Part shown: in pieces, positions 21,401 through 51,758 of the stretch
Position numbering within the stretch: position 1 is the stretch's first letter
How the letters are laid out: each line of letters opens with the position of its first letter
Assembly (NCBI GenBank): GCA_040285855.1
Contig: JAUFOQ010000016.1
Coordinates: 2,666,001-2,730,000, forward strand
DNA from: Eukaryota sp. GEM-RC1
Taxonomy: Eukaryota
DNA: 64,000 nt
Reading direction: 5' to 3'
Position numbers and translations under genes: made by a program
The notes under the pieces: model-generated
Database searches by the model: none
Told to the model about the DNA's origin: nothing
The model's input: the letters and a program-made list of their open reading frames with translations, nothing else

Positions 21401-24400
21401 TCCTAATAGAGATGAAGTTGTGGTTAATTGGAATGATATGAATCATGTTATGTTCATAGTAACTCGTGATTCAATAACATCTACAATTCCAAGAGGAAGT
21501 ACCGTTCCAAATGCTCTCAAGTCCTATATCAGCTTGTATGAGTCATTTCGAGATTCTCCTGCAATTCCATCCTCTGATGAAGGTAAAATTTCAAAAATTA
21601 GATCTTTTACATATAACAGCTCTGTTCCACCTATATTATGGAAACAAAGTTTCGGAAGCTACGCCCTTACCGGTGATGCGTTCCTTAAACAATCCTTAAT
21701 TGCTCTTAGATTTTCTGCTAATTTGCCTACCATTCTTCGAGGTGCTAGTGGTGTTGGAAAAACTCATTTACTTGAATGTTTAAGTTTTGTTTTATTTTGG
21801 AATGAATCTGCTGAAAATCCTAATTTATGGGAAGAATTGTTTGTTAATGTTACTGTAAATGCTGGTACAGAACTACACGAAGTAGAAGATACTATTAAAA
21901 GGGTCAACGATCTCGCCATACTACTTCCTCCTGAAAGTCCTCTCTTTCCAATTCTATTTTTAGATGAATGTAATGCTTCTGATTTCTTAGGACTCATGTC
22001 TTGTTTAATTACCAGCAGAAAGCTTGGAACTCTAACTTTACATCCAAAAGTCCGTTTAGTAGCTGCTATCAATCCTTATCAAAAAGGTAATGATGATAAG
22101 CTTTTGTATAATGTCCATCCAGAACCTTCATGTTTAATCCCTCTTATGATGGACTTTGGTAAGTTGTCTGAAAAGGAAGAAGAAGAATATGTCGTTAAAA
22201 TAGCTGAACGATCCGATTTAGTTTCGAGTTGTTCCACTACTGAAATCACTACGTTAGCTAAGACATTGTGTCGTATCCATAAGTGCTTGAACAATAGATC
22301 TGCAGCTTCAAATGTTCCTTGGATGATCTCTCTTCGAGATGCAGTTAGGGCAACCAGAATTTTAAAATTTTTAATCGAATTTAAGAACAATCTTGCTCCT
22401 GAATTCATGTTTTTCTCTGAAAGAACCTTTTCTCATCTACTTCTGCTTACTGTTTACGTTTGTTACATCCTTAGATTACCAACCAAGAATGACCAGAACA
22501 GTCTTCTAAAAGTAATTTGCTATGAACTACGTACTTCACTTACTGTTGCTAGACAACAAATCAATACCACTTTGTCTCAGTTCGTAGACTTGGGAACTCT
22601 TCCTGAAGGTGTTCGTAAAACTACCTACTTTTTGGAAAATACTTTTGCAATGTTTCTTGCCTTAATTTCAAGAACTCCAATTATGGTTATTGGTGCTCCA
22701 GGAACTTCAAAGTCTCTTTCACTTACTGTTTTACTTACTTTTCTATCCAAAGTTAATACTGCTGAGTCCGGTTTTCATCGTGTTTTCCCTCATCATTTCC
22801 AAGGAAGTCACGCGGCAACTACTAAATCAGTAATGACTGTGGTAGATAGAGTCAAGAAAAGTGCAATAGCTGATACTAACGTTCGTCAAGCTTTAATTAT
22901 GGATAATTGTTCTTTACTTTTAGATGCCCCTGCAAACCCCTTAAAATGTTTACATTCTGTCCTAGAACCTCGTGAAGAAAAAGTACCTGTGTTTGCTTTT
23001 ATTGGAATCTTTAATTCAGACTTTGATGCCGCTCCTTCTAGTCGTGCTATCGTCATCCATCATCAGGAGCCCTCTGATGCTGAACTTACTGCTTTACTGA
23101 AGGAAATTGGCCAGCACAGGGGTACCAAAATTCCTGAACTTTTGACCAAGATTCATAAGCTTATGAATTATCAAGCTAATAAGATCTACCCTTGTCATGG
23201 TAATCAATTCTACGGTATGAGAGATGCTTACCAGCTATCGAAATGGTTGAATATTGGAAGTGGTTTTATTCAAAGGGATCGTCGTCTTGGTTTCCTCAGA
23301 GCTTATGGAGGATTACCTTTGAAGAATGATGCTATCTTTGAGGTTGTCTCCACAATATTTGCTCCAGAGAAGAAAAAGAGGGTGAGGAATGAATCTGGTA
23401 CTGAAGATATCGATCTTTTCTTTGATAAACCACTCCCCCGATCCTTCCGATCACAACTTGACAAGGAATTACTTATAGCATGTTCACGATCTCTCCGAGA
23501 TCCGTCTCCTGATTCAAGACATATTCTCTTCATTGGGTCACTCCAACACTCTTTGTATATTGTTGACAGGTCACGGCAAGATGTGGTCGTGGTTCAAGGA
23601 TCTAGGTTTAAAAAGGATGCTTATAATGACGTGTCCTACAATCATCTATCAAAAGTGATTACTGCTGTAAAGTTAGGGAAAGTGATTGTTCTCTCTGGTA
23701 CTGAACACATTATTGGAGCCTTGTTTGATTTAATCAATAAGAATTACCTTAGAAAAGATGCCATCACTGGTGATGCTCTGTGTAGAGTCGCTTTAGGCCC
23801 TGTTTCTAACTCTTTGTGTCACGTTAATGAAAAAACTAAAATTATTTTGGTAGTTTCAGAGGAAAATTTAAAATCCACACCTCCAGCTCTCTTGAACAGA
23901 ATGGAAAAGTTTGTTCTTTCAGATCTTGTCGATGTGAAGGAATCAACTGCTGATATTGAACGTCTGTTTGATAATTTGGGTGTTTTAAAATCTCTGCCAA
24001 AATGTTCAATTACTGATTCCCAAATTCGTCAGAACTTCCTATCTGAGTTGCAACTTGTTGATACCCTTCGTCTTGAACGTCTTCATTTTCTTGCAAATCC
24101 TGCCCATGTTATTTTATCTGACAATCACTCCCATGACGGTCCTTTTCTTACTCTTACCCATGCCCTTGACCACCTTTCTAGTCTTGCCGTACTTCAACGT
24201 CCACTTAAAGTCGTAGCTCTGTCTAAAGTGTTTGGACAATCATTTGACTCATTAACTGGATATGCTTCAGTTAAAATTGCCAATATTTCTAGTGTTTCTG
24301 AATCTAGTGATTTGGAGAGTTTGTTGAAAAATACTGGTATTGAAATAATTCAAAAATTACTTGACGAAGAAGCTTCAAAAACGGCTAAATCTTTGTTGGT

Positions 24401-25456
24401 CATTAGAATTGAAGGTGATGAGGCACAACATTATGATTTCATTGAAAAATTCAGTATTTCAGATGCATTGAAAAAGTACTTCAGTAAACACGCAGATCCC
24501 CGAGTATTTTTAAAATATCTCTCAAATTTCGATATTGTCATCGCCATGATTAATGGTGAAGGTCTTCAGATATCCTCACTGTCCTCTTTCATTGCAGTCT
24601 ATTGTGACTCAATTAACTTTGTTTCAATAGTTGGTGATTCTGTTTCCAATATTTCTCAATTATTAAATTTTTCAGTTTCTGATATTCCACGAGATCAATT
24701 ATTACCGCTGTATGGCTCACTCCTAGTTCCTGCCCTAATGAAGCTACCTCTTCCTCCTGTCAAAATCCGACCTTGCTATCAAATGATTACATCTTTAGGA
24801 GATGCTTTTGTCGACTTTTTCCACGAGGTTCTTCCTATTCTTCAAGAATCTGACAGAATTCCAGCTTCTCCAAGTACTCGGTTCAATGTTTCTACTAATG
24901 AAAATAAGTGTTTGTTCGAACAACTTGAAGTATTTGTTAAAGAACAATTACTTGTTCAATTACAGGGGTTTTTTCTGTATTAATTGATTGGAATTTGATG
25001 ATTCCTTTTGATACTGATTTAATGCCTAGTAATTCTTACCTTCACTGTGTTTCTTGGCTTCTTTCTTCGACGAAACTTCCTCACTGGAATTTAGCATCCA
25101 ATTCCTTTGAAATTTCAAATTTTGGTGAGTTACATTTCATTTACTTTATTTGTGCTTTAATTGAATATCATCGTGATAACAACCCTGAACTTGATCTCTT
25201 TTTGGAATTTATTGAAGATATGTCAGATCACGAGGTTTTGCTTCATAATTATACCTGCAAAGTTGATGAAAATGATATCACCTCAATTGTTCGACCAATA
25301 TTTGAATATTTTCAAATTTCAGATTACCTTGTCGATTCTTTCGTTCAAAATGCTTCTGACTGTTTCTCAATCGTTGATCTCTTTTCGGAGCTTTACATTT
25401 TCTTGACAAAGCAACAACTTTATCACCAAAGTAAAATGTTAGTTAATGTTAACTGA
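18474..25456 (+). CDS. RNF213-like paralogue B, truncated at both ends (distal stalk + AAA core + start of E3 back; no CBM20, no RZ finger)
   Basis: ORFs 18474-19484, 19511-20824, 20821-21141, 21243-24983 and 24995-25456 align collinearly with A 10227->3323. All four joins are -1 homopolymer deletions (~19427, ~20780, ~21133, ~24966). Homology stops at LYHQS (~25430), next to a hAT remnant. Could be a functional gene or a pseudogene. Confidence 0.8.
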
Positions 25457-27015: not shown

Positions 27016-30000
27016 CTATGATCTAAAAACTTCCTCAATCTCATCTTCTTCTTCTTTTTTAGACGATACACTTGAACTTGCCATAGTTTCTAGGGCAACA
27101 GAAGTGTCCATTGACTTCATTGAAACGTTTTCTTCATTAACAATTGTTGAAGAAACGTGTAATTTAAATTGCTGTAAACTCATTAATCTCTCTTCAATAG
27201 AGTCCAATGTAATTAATCTGTAAACGTTTACAGTCCTTTTCTGACCCAATCGATGAGCCCTATCCATCGCTTGGAGGTCTTCCTGAGGGTTATACGAGTG
27301 TTCAAACATTACAACTGTATCAGCTGCTTGAAGATTAAGTCCTAGGGAACCGATAGAAGTTGTGAGAAGCAGAATTGAAATATTTGGCGAAAACGAAAAT
27401 TCATCGACAACGCTTTGACGATGCGTGACTGGAATATCACCATCTACTCTTAAAAATTCAAGACGACAAAACAATGGAAATACCAATTTTTCAATAAAAT
27501 CTAGTGATTTCTTGTGTTGTGCAAAAATTAAAATTTTGTGATCAATGGACGGTTCCAATGTATCTTCATTAATTAAGTTCAAGCCACACTGAGTTAGCAA
27601 GTCAACCAAAGCAATCAACTTGGCTGAATGATGATACACTGAAGCGTCATCAATCACGTCATGGAAATACGGATATGTCAAAATTCGGAGCTCTTTCTGA
27701 TCTCTCGACATTTGAGTAGTATCTGACTTGTCCAACCAAGAGAGAACTCCTTTTGAACAGCAGTAAGTTGACAATAAATATCGGTAATAATCTTTGGTGG
27801 AAGATCTTTTAACACATCTTCTTTCTTCCTTCGTAAAATAAATGGTAGTAACTGACGATGTAGAGCAAAAAGTGCTAGAGCGGCCTTTTCGTTGTCTTTT
27901 CCATCTTTTAAGGCCATGATTGGTCTAGTAAAGCTCTTGTTAAACTTCGATTTTGAACCAAAGTAACCGGGCATTAAAAAATCGAACAAACTCCATAGTT
28001 CAATAACGTTATTTTGAATAGGAGTTCCGGTCAAAATTAATCGATGATTGCCTTGAATTCCCTTGACCGACTGTGTTAGACGTGACGTTGGATTTCTGAT
28101 CAAGTGACCTTCATCCAAAATGACATAATCGAATAACGTGGATGAAAACCAATCGGCATTAGAACGAACATACTCATAAGAAGTAATCAGCAGCCCATTC
28201 TTATGAATATTTAAAAATTGCTCAGCTGCAACACTTCCAGTAATGAATATAAACGAATTCATATTCGGAAACATCGTCTGACATTCCTTATGCCAATGGG
28301 TAACGACAGACGGAGGACAAACAACAAGTGAAGGTAGAGTTGAAGATGAAGCAGACAATATACATAAAGTTTGAATTGTTTTACCTAAACCCATATCATC
28401 AGCAAGAATACCGTGGAGATTGAACTTTTGAAGGAAATTTAGCCATAAGATTCCTTCCTTTTGATATGGTCTAAGAGAGAAGGGGTAATCTGAAATATTG
28501 AAATATTTTGAAAAGTTTTCGACTTGAGAGTGTTGAATGGTTGTGAGTTCGTTCAAAAGGCCTCGTCTTTTTTTAATATTTCAGAGGCAGAGTGTATATG
28601 TGGGATGGACGACTCATGTCGGCCAGATAGTGAAATAAAACTAAAAAGCTTGCTGAAGCAGAGATTCGCAAGAGAATTCAAAATAATATTAGTTTTGTCG
28701 GAAATATGGTTAATACACTTAATAATTAAAGACGGAACAAATGGAATTAATAGTGTTCCATTAAGTTCTAAATATTTAAAAAAGAAGAAAAAACTGCTAG
28801 TAATAAATACAACATCATTCCCATTAATGAAGTTTAGGAACAATTGAACTAGTAACGAATTTTGTGAATTCATGACAAATTTAACCAGCAACTCAAAACA
28901 AAGACAGAATTTTGAAGAAATTAAAAATTCTTGAATGCTACCCACATCTTGAGACTCATCAATATCATTGACAGTTAGCATTATCAATGCACTGAGTGTA
29001 GAAAATACAGCTGACAGAAACGGGAGAAATGTGTGAATAATTGAGTTATCAACTGAAGCAGAAAAGGCAGTGATAGCAGATAGAATTTTCAAAATGCTCC
29101 AGAGATTGATGTTTTCATTCAATAAACTTTGAAAACGTTCAATAAAAGATGGAGAAATTTCAAAAGTTGAGGTCCGCAAAATTTGACGAAATAATTTAAA
29201 AACAATCGACAATTTCGCTGAGGTATAAGTTCATCACTTTGTAAAAATGAAAACACTTTGGAAACCACCAATGAAACGGGAGACTTAACACGAGTTCTAG
29301 ATTGAAACGTCAAGAAAGCAAAGTTTTTACAGTAAAAATCGGCAACAACCACATCGTCCTCCGTTTCCAAGGAATATAGAAATATTTTAATTATTGGACC
29401 GAGTTTTTCAGGATAATTATCACTAGGTGAACTCGAAATAATTGAACAAAAGAATGATGATAGTGTGTTTTCAAGATATTTGAAAATTCGTTGAGACGAA
29501 GAAATCTCTTCACTTAAAAGAGAGGTTTTTGTACAATCTCAGCATCATCAGAACTCGTCAAAAAATTCAATAGTTCAGTTCCTTTAGCAATAAAATTATT
29601 TACATCAGACACAGTCGACTCAAAATTTACATTTTTAATTTTCATTGTGTCTTCCAAATCCAAAACACGGCTGGCAATATTCTTTAATGATTCCTGAATC
29701 TCGGGTGAAATCAATTCCACGTGAGATTTAGATAGCTCCTGTTGTAGGAAACTCTTCAATTGAATGCCATTATCAGCACTATCTTGTAAATGACTGTTAG
29801 CAAAACAAAGAAAAATTAAAGCATAAATTGTTGAATTGTAACTGTTTTTCGAATACATGTGAGTAAAGATTGAGAGGAATGTATCGGAACAAGACTGAAT
29901 TAGGCTAGATAACAGAGTGACAAAGAAGTTACCAGTAATAAGGGCATGACTAAAAGCCGATGAATATTCGCATAGTTTGGGATAGCATTCAGATAAAAAC

Positions 30001-31492
30001 AGAGATTTCAACAATTGCGATCCCTCATCTGAATTGTGTACATCAATTCGAGATCCAATTATTTTAAAAAGATCCAATATTTCATTCAAAAATGAGAAAT
30101 CTCTGATGACGTATTCTGGGGTACATTGATCAGCAAAGAGGTCAGAACTAATTGATTGATCAAACAGAAATTCCAATAATACTGATGGCAACAGTGACGT
30201 CAAAATCTTCGAAATTGAGTTAGTTAGTGACTCAATAGTTTTAGAATCTGAAAGGAAAACTCGTTGTCTAACAGCATTAAAAGCTATGGCAGATAAACTA
30301 CACTTAGCTTGTTCCCTGACAGTAAATAACTCATGATTTAAAAAGGGAACAATAAATAAACATAAATCCTCAAAGCTGAAGTATGAAAAATCACGAGAAC
30401 CGTAAATGATTTTTAAAATTTTCAATATAGGAACAGATGCTGCTGAGAGATCATCGAGGTACTTTCGTGAAAAATCAAGTAAACATTGGGTATATTCAGT
30501 GTATTTGTCGAATAAAATCAATAAGAAGTCTTCAAAAGTCAGCAGAAGGTCCAAACAATTGGCAACAACGTCATCCTCGATTGTAGATGATGTGTTACCA
30601 GACAGAGTATGAAATATTGTTAGAAAAATGACTTCCTTTTGTTTTTCTGTGAATAGATTATTTAAATTTCTGAGGATGAAACAAGAAGCATTCATTAAAT
30701 GTGCTTCAGCCGACTGGTTTCTGAACAAATTAAAGAATTCCAAGCAGATTTCGTCAAAAATGAAATTCTGAACAGGTTCTAATATTCGCCCATATTTTAA
30801 AAACAATACTCTCAATAATTTTGACGTACACTCTGCAGTGGGATAAAAAACCACATCTCCCATAAAATCCCTTAATCGATCACGATATACAGAGGAAATA
30901 ATTGAGCTCAAAAGACAATCAACATTAAGAATAGAGAACAGTTGCGGAATGTGATTGATAACCTGATAGAGTAGAATAGAACACCCATGGCGGAGGGTCC
31001 AGTCCTCTGACTCTAAAAGAGACGGGAGACATGAAACAAGAAGAGGGAAGGATGTGTCAAAAGTAGAGAAATCAACAGAAAAGAAGGACTTCTTCTTTTT
31101 GGGGTAATTGGGGGAGCCTTGCGTTTCTTTCCAGGAACAGAGGAAGTAGATACATCATCTATTTTAGCAGATCCAAGATGTGGTAGAGAAACGAGAGTAG
31201 AAGTGTTAAGAGAGAATAGGGAAGAAAAGGAAGGGTACTCGGAATCAACATTTAGAGGAAACAGTTGACGTGCAAAGGGAAGGATTCTGTCAAGGCAAAC
31301 CCCAGCAGAAACTCGAACTCTGAATTTCGGGTAGTTAAGGAGGTCAATTACACTAGAAACAGCTTGAGGAACTAGAGAAGGTGTACAAAGAAGGAGATCT
31401 TCAAACTGCTGAGCAGCTAGAGACTGAATGGAGTCAGATGGATCGGATGATAGTAGGACAGTTATCCGATGAATTCGAGCATCCAATGACAT
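27016..31492 (-). CDS. BTAF1: TATA-binding protein-associated SNF2 ATPase Mot1/BTAF1 (~1,490 aa)
   Basis: N-terminus MSLDARIHRITVLL..AAQQFED, WTLRHG and HEAT region, then LRPYQKEG..HGILADDMGLGKTIQ, DEGHLIRN, LTGTPIQNNVIELWSLFDFLMPG, QAMDRAHRLGQKRTVNVYRLIT. The ORF breaks I checked (~28556, ~27752) are homopolymer shifts. Confidence 0.92.
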
Positions 31493-31889
31493 TTGATCTA
31501 ATTTTTCAGTAACTGAATCTCAACTCAAAAGAGTTTGATTTTCCATATATCGATATTTATGGTGTAGGTGAAGATACTACGGTGATATGCAGATCGTACA
31601 ACAGAGTGATAGGTTATTGATCTGTATAACAGTAAGACGATGATCTTCTAAACTTACCATGTTGTGGGGAAGTTATGACCGAGCTATGTTGAAATGAAAT
31701 CTAAATCCCCTTTCACCACTCTTTCTGATGACTTGTGTCTTCTTTTTTTCTTCTTTTAAAAAAAATAAAAAATTTAAACAATACTAAGTTATTGCCATAT
31801 TGATATACGTGAGGTGTCTTATGATATGTACAAATCTAATATTCTGGTAGTTGTAAAATTGAAACATTTTCAAAGCATTAAATTGCATA

Positions 31890-32844: not shown

Positions 32845-35800
32845 CTAATCATTGAGACTCCAATCAGACGTAGTTGGTCCTGTTCTAGTGTAAAGACCAG
32901 AGCTAGACTGTTCACTTTCATAAACTGAGGCAAAACCTCCTGGAATGGCGATACTATGAACAGAGACCCCTTGTCCAATTTGGACTGATACCAAGGAATT
33001 TCTGTCAAATACCTGACTTCCAATTGTTACCAAGTTGGCGGGAAGAATAACATTAGTTAACTTATTCTCATAAAAGGCGCGAAACGCAATATCAACCACA
33101 TTATCAGAAAAGATCACTTCAACCAGTTGATTACCTTTAAAGGCTGCTTCACCAATAGAGGTCACATTGCCTGGGAACGTGATCTCAGTCAATTTGTTAT
33201 TTTCAAATGCAAACAGTACAATAGTGACAAGCATTTCAGGTAACACAACAGATTCCAACTGATTGTCAGAAAAAGCACCTTGACCTATTGAACTAACTGA
33301 AGGAGGTAGATTGACCGACGTCAACTTATTATTTGCGAATGCATAACCACTAATGGTAGTAAAACTGACGGGGAAACTTACACTAGTTAACAAATTGTCA
33401 TTGAACGCACTTGATCCAATGCTAGTTATACCATCATGGAAAACCACAAATTCTATTTGGTTAGAAGCAAATGCGAAACTACCGATAGAGATTATGTTCT
33501 CAGGAATGTCAACAGTCGCAAGGGAATTTGCTTGAAACACGGAATTTTCAATGGTTTTAAGTCCAGAACCCAGAACTAAATGTTCCAGTTTGTTACTTAT
33601 AAATGCCATTGATAAGATATCTGTAACAGAATCTGGGATGACGAGATCAATCAATTGGTTTTCACCAAACGCAATAATTCCAATAGTTTTTAGAGAACTA
33701 CCCAGTATTAGTGTTGATATCTGATTGTTTCGAAAAGCCCCCAGACCAATAGAGGTCACACTTGATGGCACAATAAGATCAGTCAAATGGTTGGAAAAAA
33801 ATGAGTGCGTGCCAATAGAAACAAGAGAATCAGGCAAAGTGATGGATGATAATTGATTTTCCCTGAAGGCATTATCTGGAATTTGAGTAACTCCATTGGG
33901 AATAACAAGGGAAGAAATAGAGTTTCCAGAGAGTACATTGGATCCCAAGGTAGTAACACTATCAGGAATTACTAATTCCTCAAGGTTATTGTTTTTAAAA
34001 GCACTGTCCCCGATAGATAACAATCCAGAATTAAGAGTAAGACTAACAATGAAGTTATCCTTGAATGCACTTCCCTCAATAGTCTGAACACTGTCTGGAA
34101 TTACAACAGAAGTTAAACCCTTATCCTGGAAAGCTGACTCACCAATTGTAGTGATCACGTCACCATTAAGACTGGTAGGAATTACAACATTGAACCCAAA
34201 AGAAGCGTTATAACCAGTAATGGAGTTACTAACGGAAGTAAAACCATGACGTGTCATTGAAACTGATTCTGTCTTAGAAGTAAAAATTTGGATTGTCACA
34301 GTTCGATCAAAATAATTAGGATGTATCACAGTTAGTTCATAATCACCAGCAATCAAATCAAGAACAATGTGGCCTTCTTCATTTCCGTCAACAATCAAAT
34401 TTTGATTGATGAGTTTAACACGAGGATTGGGAATTGGTTCAGAATTAACATCATCAAGGATGATTAGTTCCAATGAAAGTAAGAAATCAAGAGAAACGTC
34501 AACAAACTTGTCACTATCAGACACTGTAACATTGATTGACTTGGGATCATAACCTTCCAAATAGAAATTGAGCTCATAATGACCAGTAGGAAGAGGTTCG
34601 ATCTCAAACTGACCATCATCGTCAGTAAATACGTCATCAAGGACATCACCAAAAACAAGAACACTCGGGAGAGGAACTGAATCGCTAGTAACTGTACCTG
34701 AAACATTAAATGTTGGTGCAAACAAAAGAGAAACATTGACAAACACGTTAAAGTCAGATATAGTGACATTAACAGACTTTGAATCGTATTTATGTAATTG
34801 AAAGTTTAGTTCGTATATACCATTTACAAGAGGCTCAAGTGCAAATAACCCATTTTCATCACTGTAAACGTCATCAAGGTCATCACCAAACACAAGAACA
34901 CCCGGGAGAGGAACTGAATCGCTAGTAACTGTACCTGAAACATTAAATGTTGGTGCAAGCAAAACAGAAACATTGATAAACACGTTACTGTCAGATACTG
35001 TGACATTAACAGACTTTGGGTCGTACTTTTCTAGTTCAAAGTGTAGCTCATAGTCTCCATTGACAAGAGGTTGAAGCTGGAAAGATCCATCGTCAACAGT
35101 ATACACGTCATCAAGGTCATCACCAAAGACAATAACACCTGAAAGAGGAACTGAATCACTAGTAACTGTACCTGATACAATGAAAGTATTTAAAGAAAGA
35201 GAAACATCAACAGTCTTATCATTGTCAAACACTGTGACATTTACTGACTTAAGATCATAACCTATAAGTTCATAAGTGAGTTCATAAACTCCATTAGTAA
35301 GTGGACGAAGCTCATAAAAGCCATCATCATCACTGTAAACGTCATCAAGGTCATCACCAAAGACAAGAACACCTGAAAGAGGAACTGTATCGCTAGTGAC
35401 TGTACCTGAAACAAGGAAAGTTGGAGGAGCGGATGAACGTAAGAAAAAGAATAATAGAAAAGCTAAGATAACAAGAACAACACAAGATAAACCAATAATG
35501 ATGTTACGTTGAGTCCCAATCAAATTCCAGTTGTCCTTTACTTTAGTAATCCACGGTGACGTAGGTTCTGGATCTTCTTTAAACTCTAACACTACATCTT
35601 TCATTTCTGTACTATCAACCTTTGAATAGGAGATCACGTCATGAACAAGTTGATCAGAGTCAGATGATTGGTTAGTGACTTCAATAGGAGAAGCTGTAAC
35701 AGTTTCAATCACAATATCAGGGTTAATATCCGATTCCACCACAGATTCTTCACTAGTGGAATCACTGGTGGAAGTCAAGTCCTTCTTGATTTCAGAAGAA

Positions 35801-38800
35801 AGAGATTTCTCAAAGACAACTTCCTCTTCAGACTTCTCAGAATCCTCTTTCTCTTCTGATTGTTCAATTACCTCCACGTGATGTTCAGCCATGGGAGGAG
35901 AGAGGGAGCCACTGGGAGTAACGAGAGGACTATCATTCAAAAGCTGTTTCTTCTTCAAATTAGCTTCTTGTTGACCAAGCCTCTTGAAGACTCCTATTCT
36001 ACGGAAAAACAAACACATTGCAAGAGATTCAGATGCATGGTCAGGATCGAGAGAAAGACAAGCAATCATGATTAATTTAGGTGAATAAAACATGTTAAAA
36101 CGAAGAACTGAAGTTAACAAACAGTTTCTATAAGGAACGTGTGGTTGACCACTAGTTACAGCAGACAACACACCTTCTAAAAAGAAGAGAGATTTGTTAT
36201 GATCAGTACATTGCTTAAACATTGGACTCTGTTTGTCTGGTAGATCGGAATTCTGAATTGGAGCTGCTAGATCAACAAAACATAATTTACTATTAGTTTC
36301 TTGAGTTTTCGAGACCAACTGAATTGAAAGAACAAAATGAGATCTTGTTGATCCTAGATTGGACTTTGATCGTTCACATTGCCTTAAATCATTTCCATTA
36401 GAAAGTAATTCTAGAGCTTCACGTAAGGTTGAGACTTTATTCTGGGAAAGTCCTGGAATTGACGTGATCTTGGCGTTGTTACAAACACTGGAAATAACAG
36501 CAGAATTCAGTAATGTAGGCGACTTCTTACCATGTGTATCGGATGACGCTTGCATGAGGTCATAAATCGCATCATCATTTAAACGTAGAAAAGAGATCAA
36601 TACTTCCTGGTCGTCAACAAGACGATGAAAGATAGAATGAAGTGACAAAGGAATCAGACCAATAGTCTCTTGTGAAATACACGTGGGAGAACCAAAGAAA
36701 GTATAAGTCTTACCACTAGCTACTCCACCATAGGTAAATAAGGTAGAAGAAACGTTGTTGAAAAGGTCTCCAACAGCAGGAGCTGCAACTTCCTCATAAA
36801 CTTGTATGTTTTCTTTAGTAAGAATAGAAGTAAAAGGAAATGACGACTTAGGACCATTAACTGGAGTTCCTTGAGCAGAACTCTTAGAAATACAAATAGA
36901 GACAGAGTTATCAGTTGGTGTGTCTATATAAACAGTCTCAGCATTAGTGGGTTTAAGTCGACAGTAAGCACTAAGTGTACCAGTCTTTGGAGTAGCAGAT
37001 GACCTGGAAGTAGAGCTTTGGAGGGAGGAATTGAGAAGGAAGACGTTAAGAAAAGGGTGATGACATTCGGGATCTTCAAGATCCTGCGAAGATACTGTGT
37101 TGTGATCGTTATCTTTGAGAGAATGAGATAGTGTTAGAGAGTTCAAATTCTTGATGTACTTGTTAAGATCATGAGATGGAGAAGGAGTATCGGAATGAAG
37201 ACGGAACAGAAGCAGAGTAGGATCTTGTGCCAGATTGTGATCTAAAGTGAAAAAGGATTTATCAGAAGGATCAATGGATATGGCAGGTCCACGTATATCA
37301 CTAATTAAGAGGGCTTGTACTTTGAGATAAATGGGGTTAACTGGAGATCTTTCATGGAGTTTCTGAACAACTAGTGACAGCTGTTCCCATGGATCTTGAG
37401 GAATCACGTGACCCAAGGATTGGAGACGTTGGAGGTACCCTTTGATTATCTGTTGGGATGTGGTGACATCCAGATCTTTATGTGTTCCTGAAAATCCAAT
37501 ATCCTCAGATACATTGGACAGGTCTTGAGGAGCAACATTGAAGACGACAGATGAAAAGGTCTCAACAAATGTCCGATAACATTGGAACGCGAAACAATGA
37601 TCAGTGATTTTGGCGAGTTCTTCTACAACGGAATCGTTGAGTCCAATGTTTAAAACTGATATTAGATCGGGTAACAAGACAAAACAAACCAACTGAATCT
37701 ATGGCTGTTGCATCATACTGTTGTTCCACTGCGAGATAAAGAGGGTTCTCGGATGAACCGAACTTCAACCCTGTAGTTTTTTCTAGCTCTTGAATCAGTT
37801 TAATTGAATCATGATTCGTGCTGAGCGCCAGAGCATGGGTTAAGGGAAAAGAGTTACCCTGAAACAAGGGAAAAAGTGATAGTATATACTCGTAGCTCGT
37901 AAGTGAAGCCAGTAGGGCTGTTAATGGGAGATGGGAGTTTCTCCCACTCCCAACACGTGTTCTCCCACTCCCAGTCCCACCTCCCACTTGTCATAGGTGA
38001 GACTCCCACTCCCACTCCCAACAAATTCTCCCAACTCCCACCCAACTCCCATTTTTGTATCTTCTAGTACAATGACACTTTACTTTATAAACATAACAAT
38101 CACTAACTCTATCTCTGATTCATGAACAACTCTCTCATCTCCCGACCTTTGAACCATGATTTCAAACAAAGGACTACTTCAATAGAATCACTACTCAAGG
38201 AAGCTCGTAACTTCGTAACAACACACCCTGCCTGAGAAAATAACTGTTCACTTGGAACTGATGAGGCTTGTGTTGTCATAAAGTTCTTAGCATACAATGT
38301 ATGCGGATAGTCGTGAATACCTGTTGAAACACAACACATTTTGTATTTTAAACCAAATTCAGTAATAATTTCTTCCACAGCATCGGCAATGTTGATGGCA
38401 GTGTTGTTTTCTTTCAAGTGCTTAAAACCGTGGACGTACATTGTAAATGTTTAAATTCCAGTCTTCAATACAGTGAACTGTTACCCCATTAAAATGCTTG
38501 TTTGTATTCGATGTCCATCTATCAATCCTAATAGATACTTTAGAAGAATTACACACATTTTTGAATTTATCTATCAAGTATCCTTTAAATGACTCATAAA
38601 CATTCAACATATCATTTCTTATCGTGGTTCTTTTTGGAATTTTGAAACTGAAAGAGAGGAAACAAATTCAATAAAATCAGGATGTTTAAACAGACCAGAG
38701 TTTTCAGGATCTTCAGATAAATCAAGCGATGACATTGGTTGAAATTTACAGATAAACAACCACGCTCTTTATAAAACGAAAATAAATAAAACAAAACAAA

Positions 38801-39111
38801 GACAGTAAAAATGTAATACACCTAGTCCTATTAATATTCTAGAAAAATTATAACTGTATTTGTCTAGCTAGCTTGTTTCTGTTTTAAATTGAAGTTAGAG
38901 TTGTGTCTGTAAATGGGAGATGGGAGATTTTGGGAGTTCCCACCTCCCAACGGAGAGCTCCACTCCCACTCCCACTCCCAAAAATTGCTACTGAGCTCCC
39001 ACTCCCACTCCCAAGGGTCATGGGAGATGGGAGTTGGGTGGGAGTTGGGAGAAATGGGAGAAATTGACAGCCCTAGAAGCCAGGGACTTGTAGGTTGTTT
39101 GCCAGACTCAT
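32845..39111 (-). CDS. Single-pass membrane protein: PPDK-N-terminal-like domain - kinesin motor domain - acidic linker - TM - 4-5 carboxypeptidase-regulatory/Ig-like repeats - BspA (TpLRR/LRR_5) repeats
   Basis: Continuous 1615-codon ORF 37692->32845. PPDK-like: QVPGFT, ELEKTTGLKFGSSENPL, VLNIGLND..FQCYRTFVETFSSVV..IPQDPWEQL. Kinesin (~36985-35990): YCRLKP, TYGGVASGKTYT, NLGSTRSH, FVDLAA, HVPYRNCLLT. TM IIIGLSCVVLVILAFLLFFFL (~35441-35503). LRRs of type IPDSVTSIGxxAFxxNxL (~34150-32960). The 5' exon (ATG at 39111) is recovered by removing the hAT at 37913-39075 and two short introns. Confidence 0.85.
34500..35425 (-). repeat. Four ~235-bp intragenic tandem repeats encoding Ig-like/CarboxypepD_reg domains
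   Basis: VSGTVTSD(S/T)VPL(S/P)GV..FGDDLDDV occurs four times; the DNA ACTGTACCTGA recurs near 34691, 34928, 35166 and 35399. Confidence 0.9.
37656..37689 (-). other. Putative 34-nt spliceosomal intron
   Basis: GTTTGT...CTAATATCAG, with a branch-point-like CTAAT 5 nt before the 3' end. Removal joins AIDSV to VLNIGLND in frame, matching PPDK MMDTVLNLGLND. Confidence 0.7.
37913..39075 (-). mobile_element. Internally deleted hAT (Ac-like) DNA transposon, 1163 bp
   Basis: TIR TAGGGCTGT(T/C)AAT; 8-bp TSD GAAGCCAG (37905-37912, 39076-39083); dense subterminal CTCCCA/TGGGAG repeats; transposase relics IDRWTS..GVTVH and QASSVPSEQLFSQAG..LCLKSW. Confidence 0.93.
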
Positions 39112-39562: not shown

Positions 39563-39930
39563 CTACTCCAAGAGCTGAAAAGTCTTCATGCAAAATTTTG
39601 AAAATTGATCTTGATCAACAGTGGTGGAATCCATGATAAGTTCCTGACAAGGTAACCAAGGACCAATCAAATCACCACGACTTCTGTCAACTTTTGGCTG
39701 ATCAGAAAGACTAGACAGTGCAGGTTCAATTTTTCCATGAAAACCATTGGCCTTGAACATATTCAGACATATATCCCAGATACTATTGTGAATATTAGAT
39801 CTAGTATGAATAAATTGATGACAGTTCACTAAATGATGAAAATTTGAAACGATTGAACGACCACAAAGACATGGAGACTGCTTATAAGACAAGTAGGTTA
39901 TAAACCTAACCTAAGCCACATTTTAAGCCA
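39563..39930 (-). mobile_element. RLE non-LTR retrotransposon remnant (zinc knuckle + endonuclease)
   Basis: CLCG..HHLVNC..HN..KIEP..RGDL..MDSTTVD. Confidence 0.65.
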
Positions 39931-41070: not shown

Positions 41071-41155
41071 TTGCAAAAATGTTGTTGGTCCACACACCAT
41101 TTTTCATAAACAAAAATGTTGAGTTCTGGTTTTTGCACTTTTCTTACTTCCACAA

Positions 41156-42118
41156 ATGACTTCAAGAGTTCCTATACTTACTTGTGATCCTAAAACAGAT
41201 CCATCTCAGTTTCTTACTGTTATAAATGTCGGAGACCACTCTGTACATTATTATGACCTCCCTTTACAAGGTCATCCTCGAATTGTTGAGCTTTCACGTC
41301 CACACTTTCTTGACTACATTGGCAGACTTGCTGGTGTTTCTCTCATTGTACGCGGTTCATTAAATTCTCAACGCCAAGAAGAGCGTTCACTACATATCCA
41401 CATCAGCGGACGAAGCAAAACAGGTGTTTCCAATGCTATTGCCCTAATATATGACACCATTGAAGGCCATCTAGACTATCCTGAATCCAACATTGATGAC
41501 GCTTCTACCAAGACCGAACACTCATCAGAAGTCCATCTCAACATCATTAACCCTCCGTCTTCCTTCAATCTTCGAGCCAAAGTTCTGGGAAGAGAAGGGG
41601 CCTACGTTAAGCACATCACCGCCACCACTGGATGCAAAGTCCAACTCAAGGGTCTTGGGTCTCAATTCAATGATCCAAGGACGGGAAAAGAAGAACCAGT
41701 GCCTTTGTACATGTATATCACCGGACCAACTCAACTACAAGTAGATGAAGCTCGAGATTTAGGAGAGAATCTGGCAACCACTGTTCGAAAGGAGTATGAA
41801 AGGTTTAGAGATAACGTTCGACCGAAAGAAGGTTCTACTCTTACAGACTTCTTCTCATGGGCTAAGAATGACCCAGGTAGTGCCCAGGTTTATGTTCAAC
41901 AGATGAAGACTCTTTATGCTTCACTGCAGCATTCATCTCTATTGTCACAACAGCGTTCTCAGCAGCAGCAACAACAGTCACAGGAACCTGATATTGATGT
42001 TGAATCTGCTCCTGAGATAGAGGAAGTAGACATGGATGAAGACATGGAGGATGATGAGGAGTCTGTTGTTGTTTCTATAGATGCACCGCCAATTAAGAGT
42101 TCTAGGATTGATGACTGA
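41156..42118 (+). CDS. KH-domain RNA-binding protein, KHDC4/BLOM7/RIK-like
   Basis: Intact 320-aa ORF with two KH-like domains: FNLRAKVLGREGAYVKHITATTGCKVQLKGLGSQF..EEPVPLYMYIT..LGENLATTVRKEY; Q-rich and acidic tail. Confidence 0.82.
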   Translation: MTSRVPILTCDPKTDPSQFLTVINVGDHSVHYYDLPLQGHPRIVELSRPHFLDYIGRLAGVSLIVRGSLNSQRQEERSLHIHISGRSKTGVSNAIALIYDTIEGHLDYPESNIDDASTKTEHSSEVHLNIINPPSSFNLRAKVLGREGAYVKHITATTGCKVQLKGLGSQFNDPRTGKEEPVPLYMYITGPTQLQVDEARDLGENLATTVRKEYERFRDNVRPKEGSTLTDFFSWAKNDPGSAQVYVQQMKTLYASLQHSSLLSQQRSQQQQQQSQEPDIDVESAPEIEEVDMDEDMEDDEESVVVSIDAPPIKSSRIDD

Positions 42119-43829: not shown

Positions 43830-44104
43830 TGTTGTAGTTGTAGATTTGTGTAATTTCATATTAGGTTTTTATCTTCCCCCTTACATCTATAGAGGTTCTT
43901 TCCTTATAAAGGTTCTCCTCTACCAAGTATGTATTCCTATAGTGCACAAAGACCAACAGTAATTACTGTGGGCAATCCCCATTCTACCAACTCACTATCA
44001 GAACCGCTCTTGAACGGAACCTCCCGTATCGAGTCATGTAAGTTCTTGGAAGACCTCCAAGCTTATGTTGCTGCTCTTCAAGCTTCCGAAGCATTGTCCC
44101 GCCC
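43830..44104 (+). repeat. 5' terminal repeat (LTR) of Gypsy family 1
   Basis: TGTTGTAG...TGTCCCGCCC; about 6 mismatches versus 50518-50792. Confidence 0.88.
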
Positions 44105-45811: not shown

Positions 45812-46440
45812 CATAGTTCGAAATGTGTACGGCACGTTCGGTAACGTACTCCATACGCGCACGCGGAATACGTGCGGCTTCTTTTTACCGTATTCCAACG
45901 TATTCTTCTTTTTAATACTCTTTTCTGTTAACCATCACCTATTTTATATTATACAATAATCTTGATGAAACAAAATCAACCACTCTTCAATAAGGTAGGG
46001 ATTCTGGTGTTTCCGTCTTTGATTAGCGTAAAGAAATGCCAAATGATGCAGGAGTGAAGCTTTCATCCTATTGCGTTTCTTGGTTTTAATGATGCAGTGC
46101 ACAATCCAATTTCTCTCGACAGCTGATTTACAACTTTGATTGGTACTGAACGAAGAATACCATCTCGTGAGGCATTTTTTTCCCACAAAGATTTGGTTGA
46201 ACATTTCTCCATTTCTTGCCATGATGGTTGTTTTTTGAAAAGGCACGTTTGTTCCCGTAATCATAAAACTCATTTAAAGCATCACTGTAATGTTCTAATG
46301 TAATGGACCATATGATAAAAGAAATGCAACACGTGTATATGTAAGAATACAGTATTCTCGCACGTGTTCTGCCGTACTCCATACGCGCACGTGCGAAATA
46401 CGTGCGGCAACTGAATAACACGTTCGCATTTCGAACTATG
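45812..46440. mobile_element. hAT-type MITE (629 bp) nested in the Gypsy RT N-terminus
   Basis: 14-bp TIR CATAGTTCGAAATG; 8-bp TSD CTGCGAAC (45804-45811, 46441-46448). Excision restores PDGIDCEPMRIPF (compare PDGIDCPPMEIPF in family 2). Confidence 0.94.
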
Positions 46441-49400
46441 CTGCGAACCTATGAGAATCCCATTTTCTGACGGATCCCGCATCGTTAGTCGACCCCCTAG
46501 GAACCTTAGCCCAGAGAAATTAGAGATTGCTAACAAAGAATATGATGACCTGTTCAAGAAAAACTTCGCTGTCCCCAATGAAACTAAATGGTCCTCTCCC
46601 ATCCGCCTGGTCACCCATGCTGACAAAGCTCCTCGTCTGACTTGTGATTTTAGTTGCAAGAATGGAATTAATGATCTTTCTCTTACCTTAGATGCCGATT
46701 TACCCAAAATAGCTGATATGTTGCCTGTCTTGTCGAAAGCCAAGTACATAGCTACTCTTGATTTACCCAAAGCCCTCTGGCAAGTCAAACTCCACCCTGA
46801 CGACGTGAAAAAAGCCTCCTTATCTATTCCCGGCCGATCAATTTCATTTACTCGTGCTGCTTTTGGCCTCAAGAACGTCCCAGCATTCTTTCAAAATTTA
46901 ATGGTCTCGTTCTTCGCCGATGAAGACATCTTCATTTATATCGACGGTATAATCGTATGTTCTGAAGATTTCTCAAGTCTACTTTCTAAACTCAGAAAAA
47001 TCCTACTGAAAGCCCGTGATAAACGAGTTATATTTGGCCTCCGCAAATGTGATTTTCTTACTTACAAAAGTAAAATCGAAATTCTAGGATGCATATTCCA
47101 AAAATCTCAACGCTCGATCATCCCAGACCGGATCAAAGCCATCTGCTCACTCTTCGCGACCAAAGATCTTATCAGAAGTCCGAAGCTTCGTTGGTTCAAT
47201 CAACTTTATTAGAGATTGGATCCCAAACCTCGCATCTGTCCTAGAACCGATTTCCAACCTCCTAAGAAAAACCAACAAAAACATTTGGACCTCCGAGACT
47301 GAATCCTGTTTCCAAGAAATTTTAAAGCTCATCTCCAGCAATATCCCTCTGAATTTGCCTGACCCCAATGATACTATTCTGATTTCAACCGATGCCTCCG
47401 GACTCTCTGGAATTATATGGGAGCAGACAGAAGACTCACTGGAACTCCCCCTGATCGAAAGAAAGACTAGACCTCTCTGCTTCTATAGCAAGAAATTCAC
47501 GGACAGTCAAAAGAATTGGCCTACCATACAGAAGGAGCTGTATGCAATTCTTGCTTCTTTGACTCTTTCCCCATTATCTTCTTTCACCCTGACCCAACGG
47601 TTCACTCTCTTTTGTGACCACAAAAATGTATTATATTTAATCTCAGCCCCAGAAAAGAACAGAATCGTCATACGATGGATCCCTATCCTGGCCAACTTTG
47701 AATTTGAGCTCGTTCACACTGCCGGTCAGGACAACCACTTCGCCGATCTGCTCTCTCGCTGCTTCCCCGAACCTTGATAACTCTAGTATTCTGATGTGCT
47801 CGTCTACGGTGCCGGTTGCAGTCGATGGGAGACACTTGATGGTTGAGGATAGCGAGTTATCCTCTTCACAGACTTCTCATCAACCCTCAGGACCTGTTTT
47901 TAGTAATAGGGCTTCTGGAGCAACGTCCCAAATGTCGACGCTGATGATGCAAAAATTTATCGAGCAGAGTGAAGGGCTCAGCAGAGAAGAACAAGTACAA
48001 CTATACTGGGAAAGAAAAGACGCCTTTTTCGCCGAACATAAACGACTCCAGAAACATGTAGACGAACTAGATGCCGAAATCAAACAAGCCGCTGATGAAC
48101 AACTCCGTCTGCTTCTGGAGAGAGATGCTGTTGTTGCTCTGGTCGAAGAGAAAAGAAAAGACCATGACTACCTAAGAGAATATGGTCTCTACATCGACGC
48201 TGACGGCCACATGTGTCAATTGTCCTCTGACTCAGATGATGAATTTCGTATCTATATGACTGACGTACCAGATCATATAGAGCTCAGTAGCTCTGATGAG
48301 TCTCACATCGTCATCGTAGATGATGAGCATCCCCCAATGCTCGAAGATCTGTCGTCGATCGAAGCGATCGATGCTGATTACCGTCTTTTCCCTCAGCTGA
48401 TCCGAGACACCTCGGACTTCCTGAGAATCACGAATTCCCCTTCAACCTCCGCTATAATCCCAGTCTCTTCTGAAGACGAAAACGACCTCTATGAACAATT
48501 CCTTGGTGAATCGCTTAAAGACACTCGCCTCTTCGACAACCTTGACAACCAACTGCCTGACCCTTGGAACCTCCTATCAACATTAACATCCACCCTAGAC
48601 CGGATATTCCCCTTGCTCCCTCGAACTTCGATTATGTAGGTATCCATGACAACGCCGGATACTACAGTCCTTGTACCGACCCTGCTCACCCTGATGAGGG
48701 TCCTTTTGATATTATGATCGCCACCCTTGACGATGCTAGAGCAATTGAATTCGAAATCGACGAAGACAACCTGTTCGCTGAACGTTTAACCATTGATAAC
48801 TTAGCTCACAACCCGCTAAGCAGTTCAGATAGTCACCTTCCCGAAGAAACTTCCTGGTCACAGATTCCCGACCCCAGCTACGTTTTTAACGATTGGCTTC
48901 AGCTCTATGCCAAGAACAAGAGAAAGCCACTGCCAACAACGACGTCACCATGACCACATACACAGAACTTATTTCTATGACCGCTAACGACAAAGATTAT
49001 GTGCTCACTTGGAACCACAGAAAGAAGAAGTTCGTTATTCCTGACTCCTTGAAACGACATTTACTTCTGACAATCCATGGATCCACTAGAGCAGGCCACC
49101 CGTCGAAGAAAGACTCTATCTCCGCCTTAATCAGAAGCGATTATTGGTGGCCAAATTGTGTTTATGACATGAATACCCATGTAAAAAATTGTATCCCGTG
49201 TCAAAAGACCGCTCCTGTCCCTGAACTGAAACTCCCCTCCTCCGGAAATCTCTGATCAGACTGCCCATTCCAATGACTACACGCTGATGTAATTAGCCCG
49301 CTATCTTCTGACTCAGAAGATTACAAATACATACTAGTATTTGTCTGCTCGTTCTCTAGGTTCACCATCCTAGTACCCCTCAAAATTCTCAACGCTCAGG

Positions 49401-50517
49401 AAGTCGCGTATGCGATACTCTGGAACGCGGTTGGCAACTACGGTATTCCATCGCAAATCCTAAGTGACAATGGACCGGAGTTCGCCAAAGCCGTTAATAA
49501 AAGTTTATGTTTGTTCTTGAACATCGAAAAGAAATTCTCAACCCCCTATTTTCATCAGGTTAACGGACTGGTAGAAAGAAGGCACCGAGAAGTCTTGCAA
49601 ACCCTTCGCCGCCTGCTCATTGACCTCCAAGCACACGCCAATTGGAGCACGTACATTCCAATTACCCAACTGATCCTAAACACCAGAACCAGTTCCATCA
49701 CAAATTTCACCCCCTTCAAGCTTATCTTCGGCTCTAAAACTGATCCCAGACAACTTCCCCTTCAAGTCATCCAGAACTGTACTGTAGATGATCACTTACC
49801 GCAGTATTAATACGTTGATTCCTTGAAACAGAAAACTTCCACTATCTTAAACTAGTGGAAAGAGGCAAAAAACTCCTATTAATCTCAAAAAAGATCAGTT
49901 TCATCCAGGAACTCTGCTACCAACAAGAAACTCATCAACGACATCCAACAAGGAGACTTCGTCTTGAAACTCAGTGAACACCCATTCAAGACTCATGGAA
50001 AGTGGACCGGCCCCTACTTAGTTGAGACTTTTTCTTATCACCCCTCGAATTGTCTCATCCGTAATTTCATCACAGGAATCTCGGTTAAATGCTCTCATTT
50101 TTCTCTTTGTCACGTTAACAAATGCCACACCAACCACTCTGAGAACGTTCTACAAGCCTACGCCGCTACCGACTCGGAAGAAGTCATCATCGACAAACTT
50201 ATTGATCATGACTTGACCTCTCCTCAAGACCCCAAGTACCTAGTCCGCTGGCTGGACGGTACTACCACATGGGAAGGCCGCTCTGTAGAAAATACAGCCG
50301 CTTACTACGCTTACCGCAGAAAGTACATTGACGAACCTCCTCAAGCTAAAGGTCCTTCAACTGCCCGTGCCAACTCTAAACTATACGCTGCTTGGAAAGC
50401 CCAACACCACAAGTCCGCTCCTGTTGTAGCCCGCAATCAGCACCGTATGGAAACAAGAAATCGTACGTCCCACTAGGTTATTTTTAATATGAATTACCCA
50501 ATAAGAAGAAAATGCAG

Positions 50518-50792
50518 TGTTGTAGTTGTAGATTTGTTTAATTTCATATTAGGTTTTTATCTTCCCCCTTACATCTATAGAGGTTCGTTCCTTATAAAGG
50601 TTCTCCTCTTCCAAGTATGTATTCCTATAGTGCACAAAGACCAACAGTAATTACTGTGAGCAATCCCCATTCTACCAACTCACTATCAGCACCGCTCTTG
50701 AACGGAACCTCCCGTATCGAGTCATGTAAGTTCTTGGAAGACCTCCAAGCTTATGTTGCTGCTCTTCAAGCTTTCGAAGCATTGTCCCGCCC
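50518..50792 (+). repeat. 3' terminal repeat (LTR) of Gypsy family 1
   Basis: 275-bp direct repeat of 43830-44104, preceded by purine-rich AATAAGAAGAAAATGCAG. Confidence 0.88.
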
Positions 50793-51758
50793 AAATTTGG
50801 GTTTTGACTTATCATGTACCATAAATTTTGAGTTATCCTGTTGATGCTGTATGGAGTTAGTGGACATACAATGAATGAAATTAAGTTGGTTTATAATCTA
50901 TGATTCTCATACTATGATAATCTACACTGTACCTTTTCACTTAGACTAATTTCATGCCTTCAGATGTTGATGAAATCGATTATACAGCACTCAGCTCATC
51001 TGTATGGATGCTCAAACTTTTGAATTATTGGAAGAACATCTCTAGGGGTGGTGTTTGAGTACTGGATTTGCACTGTATTGATGCACCCACAAATGATATT
51101 GTTCTTGAACAATCAGAGTTTGATAGTCATATCTTATCCGTAGTCGAGCAGTAGTGCAATGAGAACAATAAACTTTATTTGAAACAGTAATGGTTGTGTT
51201 TTACAATCGTAAAAGTTCAAACACTGTCAATCTATCAGAAAAGTGGGGAGTCGATTCCATCCTAGAATCAGGAGGAGGGAATGAATGATACGAAAGACAT
51301 TGTTTGAAGTTTCTAACATGTACAACGTTGTGCTCAACAGGAAGATCAATCACCATCAAGTGAGACATACGTTTCCAGGCAGTTCACTTCAGATAGTCGA
51401 AAATCCAAGAATGGAATTGCAAATGATTCTGATAATGGAAGATCAGGATCCGGAAGACTTAAGTGTGGTAACTGCTAGCAAGAATGACACGGTGTAAAGT
51501 GTTTGAGCTTATGAGGAAAGTGTGGAAACGAAGATCACAAGCTCAAATCTTGTTCAGAAGCGTAGACTAGATAGAAATCATTGTTGAAGATGTATGTTTG
51601 TGTAAGAGATTGGGTATTGAAAGTCAAAAGGTACACTGTCGTTTTCAATTAATTTGCACTATCACACACACTTTTGCTATAATCTTGACAGAATTGACTA
51701 AAATCTTGACAACTTCTTTTCACTTCCCCTCAAATATCTCTCAGTATAATTCATAATT

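Follow-up and report, generated by a model that had tools for sequence, protein, structure and literature searches.

A kinesin-9-like head in a predicted type II BspA-type membrane protein of a skoliomonad, encoded by a chimeric gene with a hAT transposon in its first exon

The DNA stretch analysed here, which is called the window, comprises 64,000 nucleotides of Eukaryota sp. GEM-RC1 (assembly GCA_040285855.1, contig JAUFOQ010000016.1, positions 2,666,001 to 2,730,000). On its minus strand, it carries a gene that encodes, in one open frame and in this order, a fragment of PPDK, a kinesin head, an acidic linker, one transmembrane (TM) helix, five beta-sandwich repeats, and 18 leucine-rich repeats (LRRs) of the BspA type. 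The gene unites parts of two parent families, occurs as three fused copies, has lost the glycine and glutamate of kinesin switch II, and is interrupted by a transposon in the window copy. The isolates GEM-RC, TZLM1-RC and TZLM3-RCL are described as Skoliomonas: metamonads that live freely and anaerobically, feed on bacteria, and possess a ventral groove and a long cytopharynx, cysts being reported for one isolate (PMC11603281, available part).

The frame extends from stop to stop over 1617 codons (32845-37698); shuffling the region 200 times gave no frame beyond 175 codons. Kinesin (PF00225; E 8.6e-49), CarboxypepD_reg repeats in four stretches (E 6e-36), and LRR_5 (E 1e-86) were retrieved by a Pfam scan. 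An earlier note on this DNA had described one continuous fusion frame across the kinesin, TM and ectodomain junctions, which is upheld by the 1617-codon frame and by a paralog (P0034) that shares all junctions. Similarly, the kinesin motifs named in that note were located (GGVASGKTYT at 36729 and HVPYRN at 36141), its PPDK-like N-terminal part was recovered (E 2e-9 for the window piece and E 2e-17 for the family profile), and hydropathy indicated a single strong hydrophobic helix and no N-terminal signal peptide, as it had stated. Its estimate of about 18 BspA/TpLRR repeats agrees with the 18 repeats counted, each of 22 residues. Two of its statements were only partly correct. The repeats that it had called Ig-like are indeed four, encoded by DNA repeats of 234-237 nt, plus a divergent fifth, which was read by eye from the database protein P0001, but they are beta-sandwiches of the CarboxypepD_reg/prealbumin type. 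Further, the frame is continuous but not a stand-alone open reading frame, as no methionine occurs before residue 382, which already lies in the motor. Indeed, P0001 (1694 amino acids) is identical to the long frame plus two upstream exons, joined via GT-AG introns of 31 and 34 nt, and 14 codons at the start of the 1617-codon frame lie over the last part of exon 2 and over intron 2. A length of 38 nt for this intron was rejected, since 34 nt yields both P0001 and the open frame.

The first exon of the window copy is split by a hAT transposon, which the earlier note did not mention. This element displays the short terminal inverted repeats (TIRs), the 8-bp target-site duplication (TSD) and the transposase of hAT elements, the latter as a remnant only. 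Likeness to the N-termini of P0155, P0031 and P0032, which are paralogs without a kinesin head, resumes on the far side of the transposon; this match to kinesin-less paralogs on both sides of the element indicates that it landed in native exon 1. The coordinates of all features are listed in Table 1.

Table 1. Features of the chimeric gene and of the transposon within it (window coordinates)
Feature	Position	Strand	Evidence
Native start codon and first 12 codons of exon 1	39076..39111	-	12-residue peptide, then TAG; matches N-termini of kinesin-less P0155, P0031 and P0032
Degenerate hAT DNA transposon, 1163 bp	37913..39075	.	9-bp TIRs; perfect 8-bp TSD at 37905-37912 and 39076-39083
Transposase remnant, hAT C-terminal dimerisation region	38112..38450	-	PF05699, E 5.5e-7; stops in surrounding frames
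First exon of the P0001 model	37890..37994	-	Transposon-derived in-frame ATG at 37994, leading into the native exon 1 remainder (37912-37890); tblastn 100%
Intron 1, 31 nt, GT-AG	37859..37889	-	Spliced product aligns gap-free to P0031/P0032 here
Exon 2, in which the PPDK-like fragment begins	37690..37858	-	Translation; PPDK profile match
Intron 2, 34 nt, GT-AG	37656..37689	-	11-residue insertion at the same position in P0035, an annotated isoform of a paralog
Coding exon 3	32845..37655	-	Sole stop at the end (32845-32847); identical to the tail of P0001
Remainder of PPDK N-terminal-like fragment	37138..37655	-	Family matches PPDK residues about 50-215
Kinesin-9-derived head (inferred origin)	35965..36981	-	P-loop GGVASGKT, switch I STRSH, degenerate switch II DLAAPI
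Acidic, Ser-rich linker	35560..35964	-	First part homologous to the post-motor linker of P0002
Single predicted TM helix (signal-anchor)	35446..35502	-	Kyte-Doolittle 3.2; kept in P0031, P0032 and P0034
Four tandem CarboxypepD_reg beta-sandwich repeats and a divergent fifth	34255..35433	-	Pfam; 234-237-nt DNA repeats
18 BspA/TpLRR repeats, exact 22-residue period	32989..34176	-	LRR_5, E 1e-86

The head is a member of the kinesin superfamily by its profile and its predicted structure. An AlphaFold2 model based on a 69-row alignment, of the kind proposed in the earlier note, displayed the full kinesin fold (pLDDT 89; Foldseek to kinesin-1, E 7.5e-27). The P-loop (GxxxxGK[ST]) is present as GGVASGKT, with three customary residues of the loop (Q, T and G) replaced, and switch I (NxxS[ST]RSH) is present as NLGSTRSH. 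The form STRSH was ruled out as a mark of degeneration, since 59 of the 138 control kinesins have it too. Switch II (DLAGSE) reads DLAAPI in P0001. Its glycine, found in 138/138 controls, is alanine in 7/7 family members; its glutamate is replaced by isoleucine in P0001, P0002, P0033 and P0034 and by aspartate in P0003 and P0005, and is kept in P0004 only. Conservation in at least 90% of a set of 63 control kinesins was seen at 72 positions, of which the fused head keeps 42 and the related heads of the donor family (see below) 45-49, compared with at least 60 for the controls, which themselves define these columns. The motifs NKSL and HVPYR, which we take to face the microtubule, are retained. 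The sequence after helix alpha-6, including the neck linker, is unlike that of the controls, and a crude heptad proxy for coiled coils did not separate query and control. Kinesin-1 with the mutation G234A does not hydrolyse ATP and is immobile, yet remains attached to microtubules (PMC13016605, available part), and its ADP release is fast (10.1101/2024.09.19.613825, available part). Because both the glycine and the glutamate of switch II are lost, the former by the same change to alanine as in hydrolysis-dead kinesin-1, the head is probably not a motor, and the working kinesin motor of the earlier note is not supported. By analogy, the skoliomonad heads may behave like kinesin-1 G234A, binding microtubules in a rigor-like manner.

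As for the origin of the head, the best matches of the family profile, after five family members, were KIF6/KIF9-type proteins (best 120 of 805), and the top three Protein Data Bank matches of the donor-family profile were the kinesin-like chain 7n61_0X (from a structure of 'C2 projections and MIPs') and two KIF9 entries. A quick maximum-likelihood tree was built from 45 motor domains, seven from the family and 38 picked for spread from the 138 control kinesins. In it, the family, itself a very long branch, shares with kinesin-9 one side of a branch supported at 98; three rows not labelled kinesin-9 fall on that side too. An approximately unbiased (AU) test disfavoured a grouping with kinesin-4/KIF27 (p-AU 0.028), a group that was named after the tree had been seen. 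PF23735, which was found in most kinesin-9 matches, was absent from the Pfam results of P0001-P0005. The family thus groups with kinesin-9, subject to the caveat of its long branch, and kinesin-9 would be the ultimate source of the head.

The PPDK-like fragment scored 67 bits against a PPDK cut-off of 843. Neither the His-carrier nor the phosphoenolpyruvate (PEP) domain of PPDK was found in the Pfam scans, and the rest of the ATP-grasp domain is absent too. A predicted model of a paralog matched the PPDK N-terminal domain with a TM-score (a measure of structural similarity) of 0.69. The arginine of the PPDK motif VSVRS, which presumably has a role in ATP binding, is replaced in the family. The fragment is predicted to be non-catalytic because the rest of the enzyme is absent. 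A type II topology (N-terminus inside, C-terminus outside) is a reasonable inference for the fusion protein, since it has one TM helix and no signal peptide by hydropathy, and since a kinesin must be cytosolic. Basic residues are more numerous on the N-terminal side of the helix, by inspection. N-glycosylation sequons were rejected as topology evidence, as they were not enriched (seven in the 828 residues before the helix and 10 in the 866 after it). The ectodomain possesses the LRR_5 array of BspA/TpLRR proteins. It does not follow the arrangement of the transmembrane BspA proteins of Trichomonas vaginalis (TvBspA), with a TM domain followed by a C-terminal cytoplasmic tail, as its LRRs lie C-terminal of the sole TM helix.

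The chimera can be traced to two parent families, all members of which carry the source name 'hypothetical protein'. The first, parent A, consists of a PPDK fragment, a TM helix, beta-sandwich repeats and BspA repeats, short members ending earlier, and comprises at least 10 kinesin-less loci (P0006, P0007, P0031, P0032, P0037, and P0153-P0157). Two of these loci have several annotated isoforms, and BspA repeats occur in several members. When the parent A profile was compared exhaustively with 1.84 billion cluster representatives, the seven best matches (E 2e-30 or better) were all labelled GEM-RC1; as representatives were clustered at 50%, close members from other species could stay hidden. 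Nine of the 143 further matches listed were scanned against Pfam, and all nine contained PPDK_N. Among the further matches, P0202, P0213, P0222, P0235 and P0248 are long unnamed proteins (1405-3376 amino acids) with an internal PPDK_N-like domain, in one case beside a methyltransferase domain. Parent A appears to be a species-restricted family that uses a PPDK fragment as the predicted cytosolic domain of type II proteins.

The second family, parent B (P0002-P0005; 1403-1733 amino acids), occurs under three skoliomonad species labels and consists of a kinesin head, a linker, a TM helix, two H-type lectin domains, further TM helices and a GT2 domain. The C-terminal part of P0002 falls among GT2, hyaluronan- and chitin-synthase-like clusters of the atlas (score 0.96-0.97), and the motifs DDD, ED and QRVKS[WY] are conserved in the family. 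Between P0002 and P0003, identity amounts to 51% in the head, 21% in the linker, 30% in the lectin loop, and 70% in the GT2 core. A role of parent B in the synthesis of a cyst wall or coat is a guess. Residues 29-274 and 759-911 of P0001 match kinesin-less P0031 at 56% and 65% identity, and residues 255-760 match P0002 at 55%, with boundaries set from local and genafpair alignments. On these sequence matches, P0001 is a parent A protein into which some 500 residues of parent B have been placed, directly ahead of the TM helix. In addition, the three fused heads form a clade that is sister to P0002 (SH-aLRT 99), suggesting that the fused head derives from a duplicate of a kinesin–H-lectin–GT2 gene of the P0002 type. 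The transfer is read as going from parent B into parent A because parent B is more widely distributed.

The PPDK/kinesin/TM/BspA fusion is real, and three annotated copies were found (P0001, P0033 and P0034). P0034 (939 amino acids), which has another locus tag and is 81% identical to P0001, contains the PPDK/kinesin, kinesin/linker, linker/TM and TM/repeat junctions, and P0033 (459 amino acids) shares the PPDK/kinesin junction at 90% identity. The recurrence of all junctions in the diverged P0034 argues against a misassembly between motor and TM helix, a possibility raised in the earlier note. A comparison of P0001 with P0034 shows higher conservation in the head (92.6%, 314/339) than in the PPDK part (82.7%, 143/173; Fisher p 0.0008), and the first two repeats are 65% and 57% identical. 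Furthermore, under a neutral substitution model without indels, the probability that exon 3 would contain no stop was 0.07 at 3.5% and 0.003 at 8.3% amino-acid change, these simulated divergences being about half of the motor and PPDK differences between P0001 and P0034. The simplest reading is that of a relaxed but real constraint after the fusion, followed by recent damage.

The gene is flanked downstream by a helicase gene of the SNF2 family (27016-31519, minus strand, in several frames), presumably Mot1/BTAF1-like and with an N-terminal region that is long and helical, and upstream by a divergently oriented KH-domain gene of the KHDC4/BBP type (41123-42118, plus strand). Upstream of the native start, a 115-codon frame (39563-39910, minus strand) without a Pfam match looks by eye like a fragment of a non-LTR retroelement (LTR, long terminal repeat). 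A cluster of LTR-retrotransposons (43830-64000), with protease, reverse transcriptase, RNase H and integrase split across several frames, contains a 4.6-kb direct repeat (46348-50928 versus 54794-59370; 99.5%), and repeats of about 276 bp occur at 43830, 50518 and 58958. At the other end of the window, a large inverted duplication (3323-10228 versus 18488-25429; 86-90% identical) harbours long open reading frames with weak Pfam matches of the dynein/midasin AAA type.

Taken together, the locus may encode a chimeric type II membrane protein, of which an ATPase-crippled head holds an adhesin on microtubules, in a copy that a transposon has interrupted; we consider this reading as likely to be right as wrong. 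In such a signal-anchored protein, the PPDK fragment and the pseudokinesin head would be cytosolic, and the beta-sandwich stalk would present the BspA solenoid outside the cell or in the lumen of a vacuole. By analogy with rigor kinesin, the head would not walk but clamp the adhesin to cortical microtubules. The LRRs may bind prey bacteria or substrate, a bacterial surface being the likeliest ligand because the organism is a bacterivore that takes its prey at the cytopharynx. The tether could thus position the adhesin on a microtubule-supported membrane, such as that of the groove or cytopharynx, and the fused frame would have been under selection until recently. Trichomonad BspA proteins increase adhesion by an unknown mechanism (PMC6701047, available part). 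A bolder version, which we hold only tentatively and would sooner bet against, is that the skoliomonad kinesin-9 head, naturally G234A-like, is a transferable 'microtubule clamp' that served first in a lectin–glycan-synthase protein and then in a bacteria-binding BspA adhesin, the window copy perhaps still being expressed from the transposon-supplied start codon.

Several observations weigh against a tethered adhesin. The fusion was observed under just a single species label, and no fully intact fused copy was found among the three annotated ones: as annotated, P0034 breaks off in its third repeat and P0033 immediately behind the motor. Translation from the native ATG at 39111 ends at codon 13, in a TAG of the hAT terminal repeat, and 19 ATGs within the element precede that at 37994 on the gene strand, so that present expression of P0001 would require either that transcription begins within the end of the transposon or that the element is removed. 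The fused head lacks the conserved glutamate of the YxE motif as well as that of helix alpha-4. It also carries more private changes than P0002 (16 versus 5 over 139 columns, p 0.027; 29:12, 41:18 and 37:16 with single outgroups). Its conservation relative to the acidic linker (87.2%) is not significantly higher (p 0.09), and its conservation could be explained by gene conversion. Finally, trichomonad BspA proteins are reported to reside mainly in internal compartments (PMC6701047, available part).

Some of these facts fit a somewhat unlikely yet serious alternative, namely that the fused lineage, a chimera within a birth-and-death family of surface proteins, is already dead or is dying out: the transposon silenced the window copy, the other two copies are broken, and no protein is made now. 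The immediate stop in exon 1, the truncation of P0033 and P0034 and the accelerated evolution of the head are what such decay would leave; moreover, the kinesin-less P0031, P0032, P0156 and P0157 are short or end early, and the window is rich in mobile elements. However, exon 3 has stayed open over about 1600 codons although the cytosolic part differs from that of P0034 at 7-17% of its amino acids, the transposon end does supply an in-frame ATG, and the end of P0033 falls in a run of lysine codons, where it could reflect a sequencing slip. It is improbable that a protein is made whose head has lost its hold on microtubules and is carried along as a passenger, leaving an ordinary member of a BspA surface or vacuole family. 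The retention of just 42 of the 72 conserved kinesin positions and the existence of at least 10 family loci without any head would suit this idea; yet no other region is as well conserved between the fused paralogs as the head, its fold is predicted to be intact, and the donor family keeps the head at 51% between species versus 21% for the linker. The version put forward in the earlier note, an active kinesin motor in a receptor that drags bound prey or membrane along microtubules, is very improbable. The P-loop GKT and switch I are retained, STRSH being ordinary, and the predicted fold is complete, but the switch II glycine and glutamate are gone, the neck-linker sequence is unlike that of controls, and G234A blocks both hydrolysis and motility in kinesin-1 (PMC13016605, available part). 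An assembly artefact or bacterial contamination can be practically dismissed: the junctions are known from assembled sequence alone, but two in-frame junctions both recur in a diverged paralog, the head is merely 65-67% identical to P0002, the domains have a GC content at third codon positions (0.24-0.35) like that of neighbouring genes (0.26-0.32), the best prokaryotic ectodomain matches are 35-43% identical (three loci from 129 pattern matches), and the gene carries spliceosomal introns.

If the reading of a tethered adhesin, with the head as a clamp, were true, nature would use the switch II change that laboratories use for rigor kinesin, in a head moved between unrelated membrane proteins, and a testable mechanism would be available for placing adhesins or wall synthases on the excavate feeding apparatus. 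The locus also preserves traces of domain shuffling, of duplication and of damage by a transposon within a single lineage. The window copy may be dead, and the fusion is known from a single species; the kinesin–lectin–GT2 donors (P0002-P0005), which are intact and conserved, offer a safer object of study.

Kinesins normally reach membranes by adaptors or lipid-binding tails. No description of a membrane-integral kinesin or of the PPDK/kinesin/TM/BspA architecture was found in the full-text literature searched, in which coverage of subscription journals is incomplete. A term search gave no occurrence of kinesin, BspA, PPDK or leucine-rich in the available text of a skoliomonad preprint (10.1101/2023.05.03.539051), and the readable supplementary files of PMC11316075 contained no match to the same subject. 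Apparently, this fusion of a motor domain with a membrane protein has been undescribed so far.

Its parts do resemble known systems. The PPDK N-terminal domain is matched over residues about 50-215, but the family is without the rest of ATP-grasp, the His-carrier and the PEP domains, and the arginine of VSVRS is replaced. The BspA proteins of Trichomonas and Entamoeba form an expanded family with LRR_5 arrays, TM members and pseudogenes, and the TvBspA TM proteins, of type I/III, have N-terminal LRRs and C-terminal cytoplasmic tails (PMC2843621, available part); a term search of this paper found no mention of kinesin. An LRR_5 array in an expanded family also characterises the family of the fusion, which differs in its reversed order (predicted type II), its beta-sandwich stalk and its PPDK-derived cytosolic domain. 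With kinesin-9 (KIF6, KIF9 and axonemal central-pair kinesins), the head shares its best non-family matches and its side of the tree, whereas the fused family shows about 30% identity, a very long branch, no PF23735, a degenerate switch II and a membrane-integral position. Non-motile kinesins (kinesin-11/KIF26, Smy1, Vik1 and Costal2) have a degenerate nucleotide site, serve in microtubule binding or tethering and are soluble. The fused head is like them in combining a kinesin fold with a degenerate nucleotide site, and unlike them in that they are soluble. Lastly, the myosin-motor chitin synthases (Mcs1/myosin-17 and molluscan myosin chitin synthase) also join a cytoskeletal motor domain and a membrane protein in one chain, and the motor domain of the Ustilago myosin-17 Mcs1 tethers vesicles without motility (PMC3252574, available part). 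The donor family P0002-P0005 is like these enzymes in ending in a GT2 synthase-like domain and would be their counterpart on microtubules; the fusion gene, in contrast, has kinesin and microtubules instead of myosin and actin, and an adhesin-type ectodomain instead of a synthase on the far side. The fusion is thus an analog of myosin-17 chitin synthase and not a member of that family, and a kinesin head within a transmembrane protein would be the microtubule counterpart of the myosin-chitin synthases.

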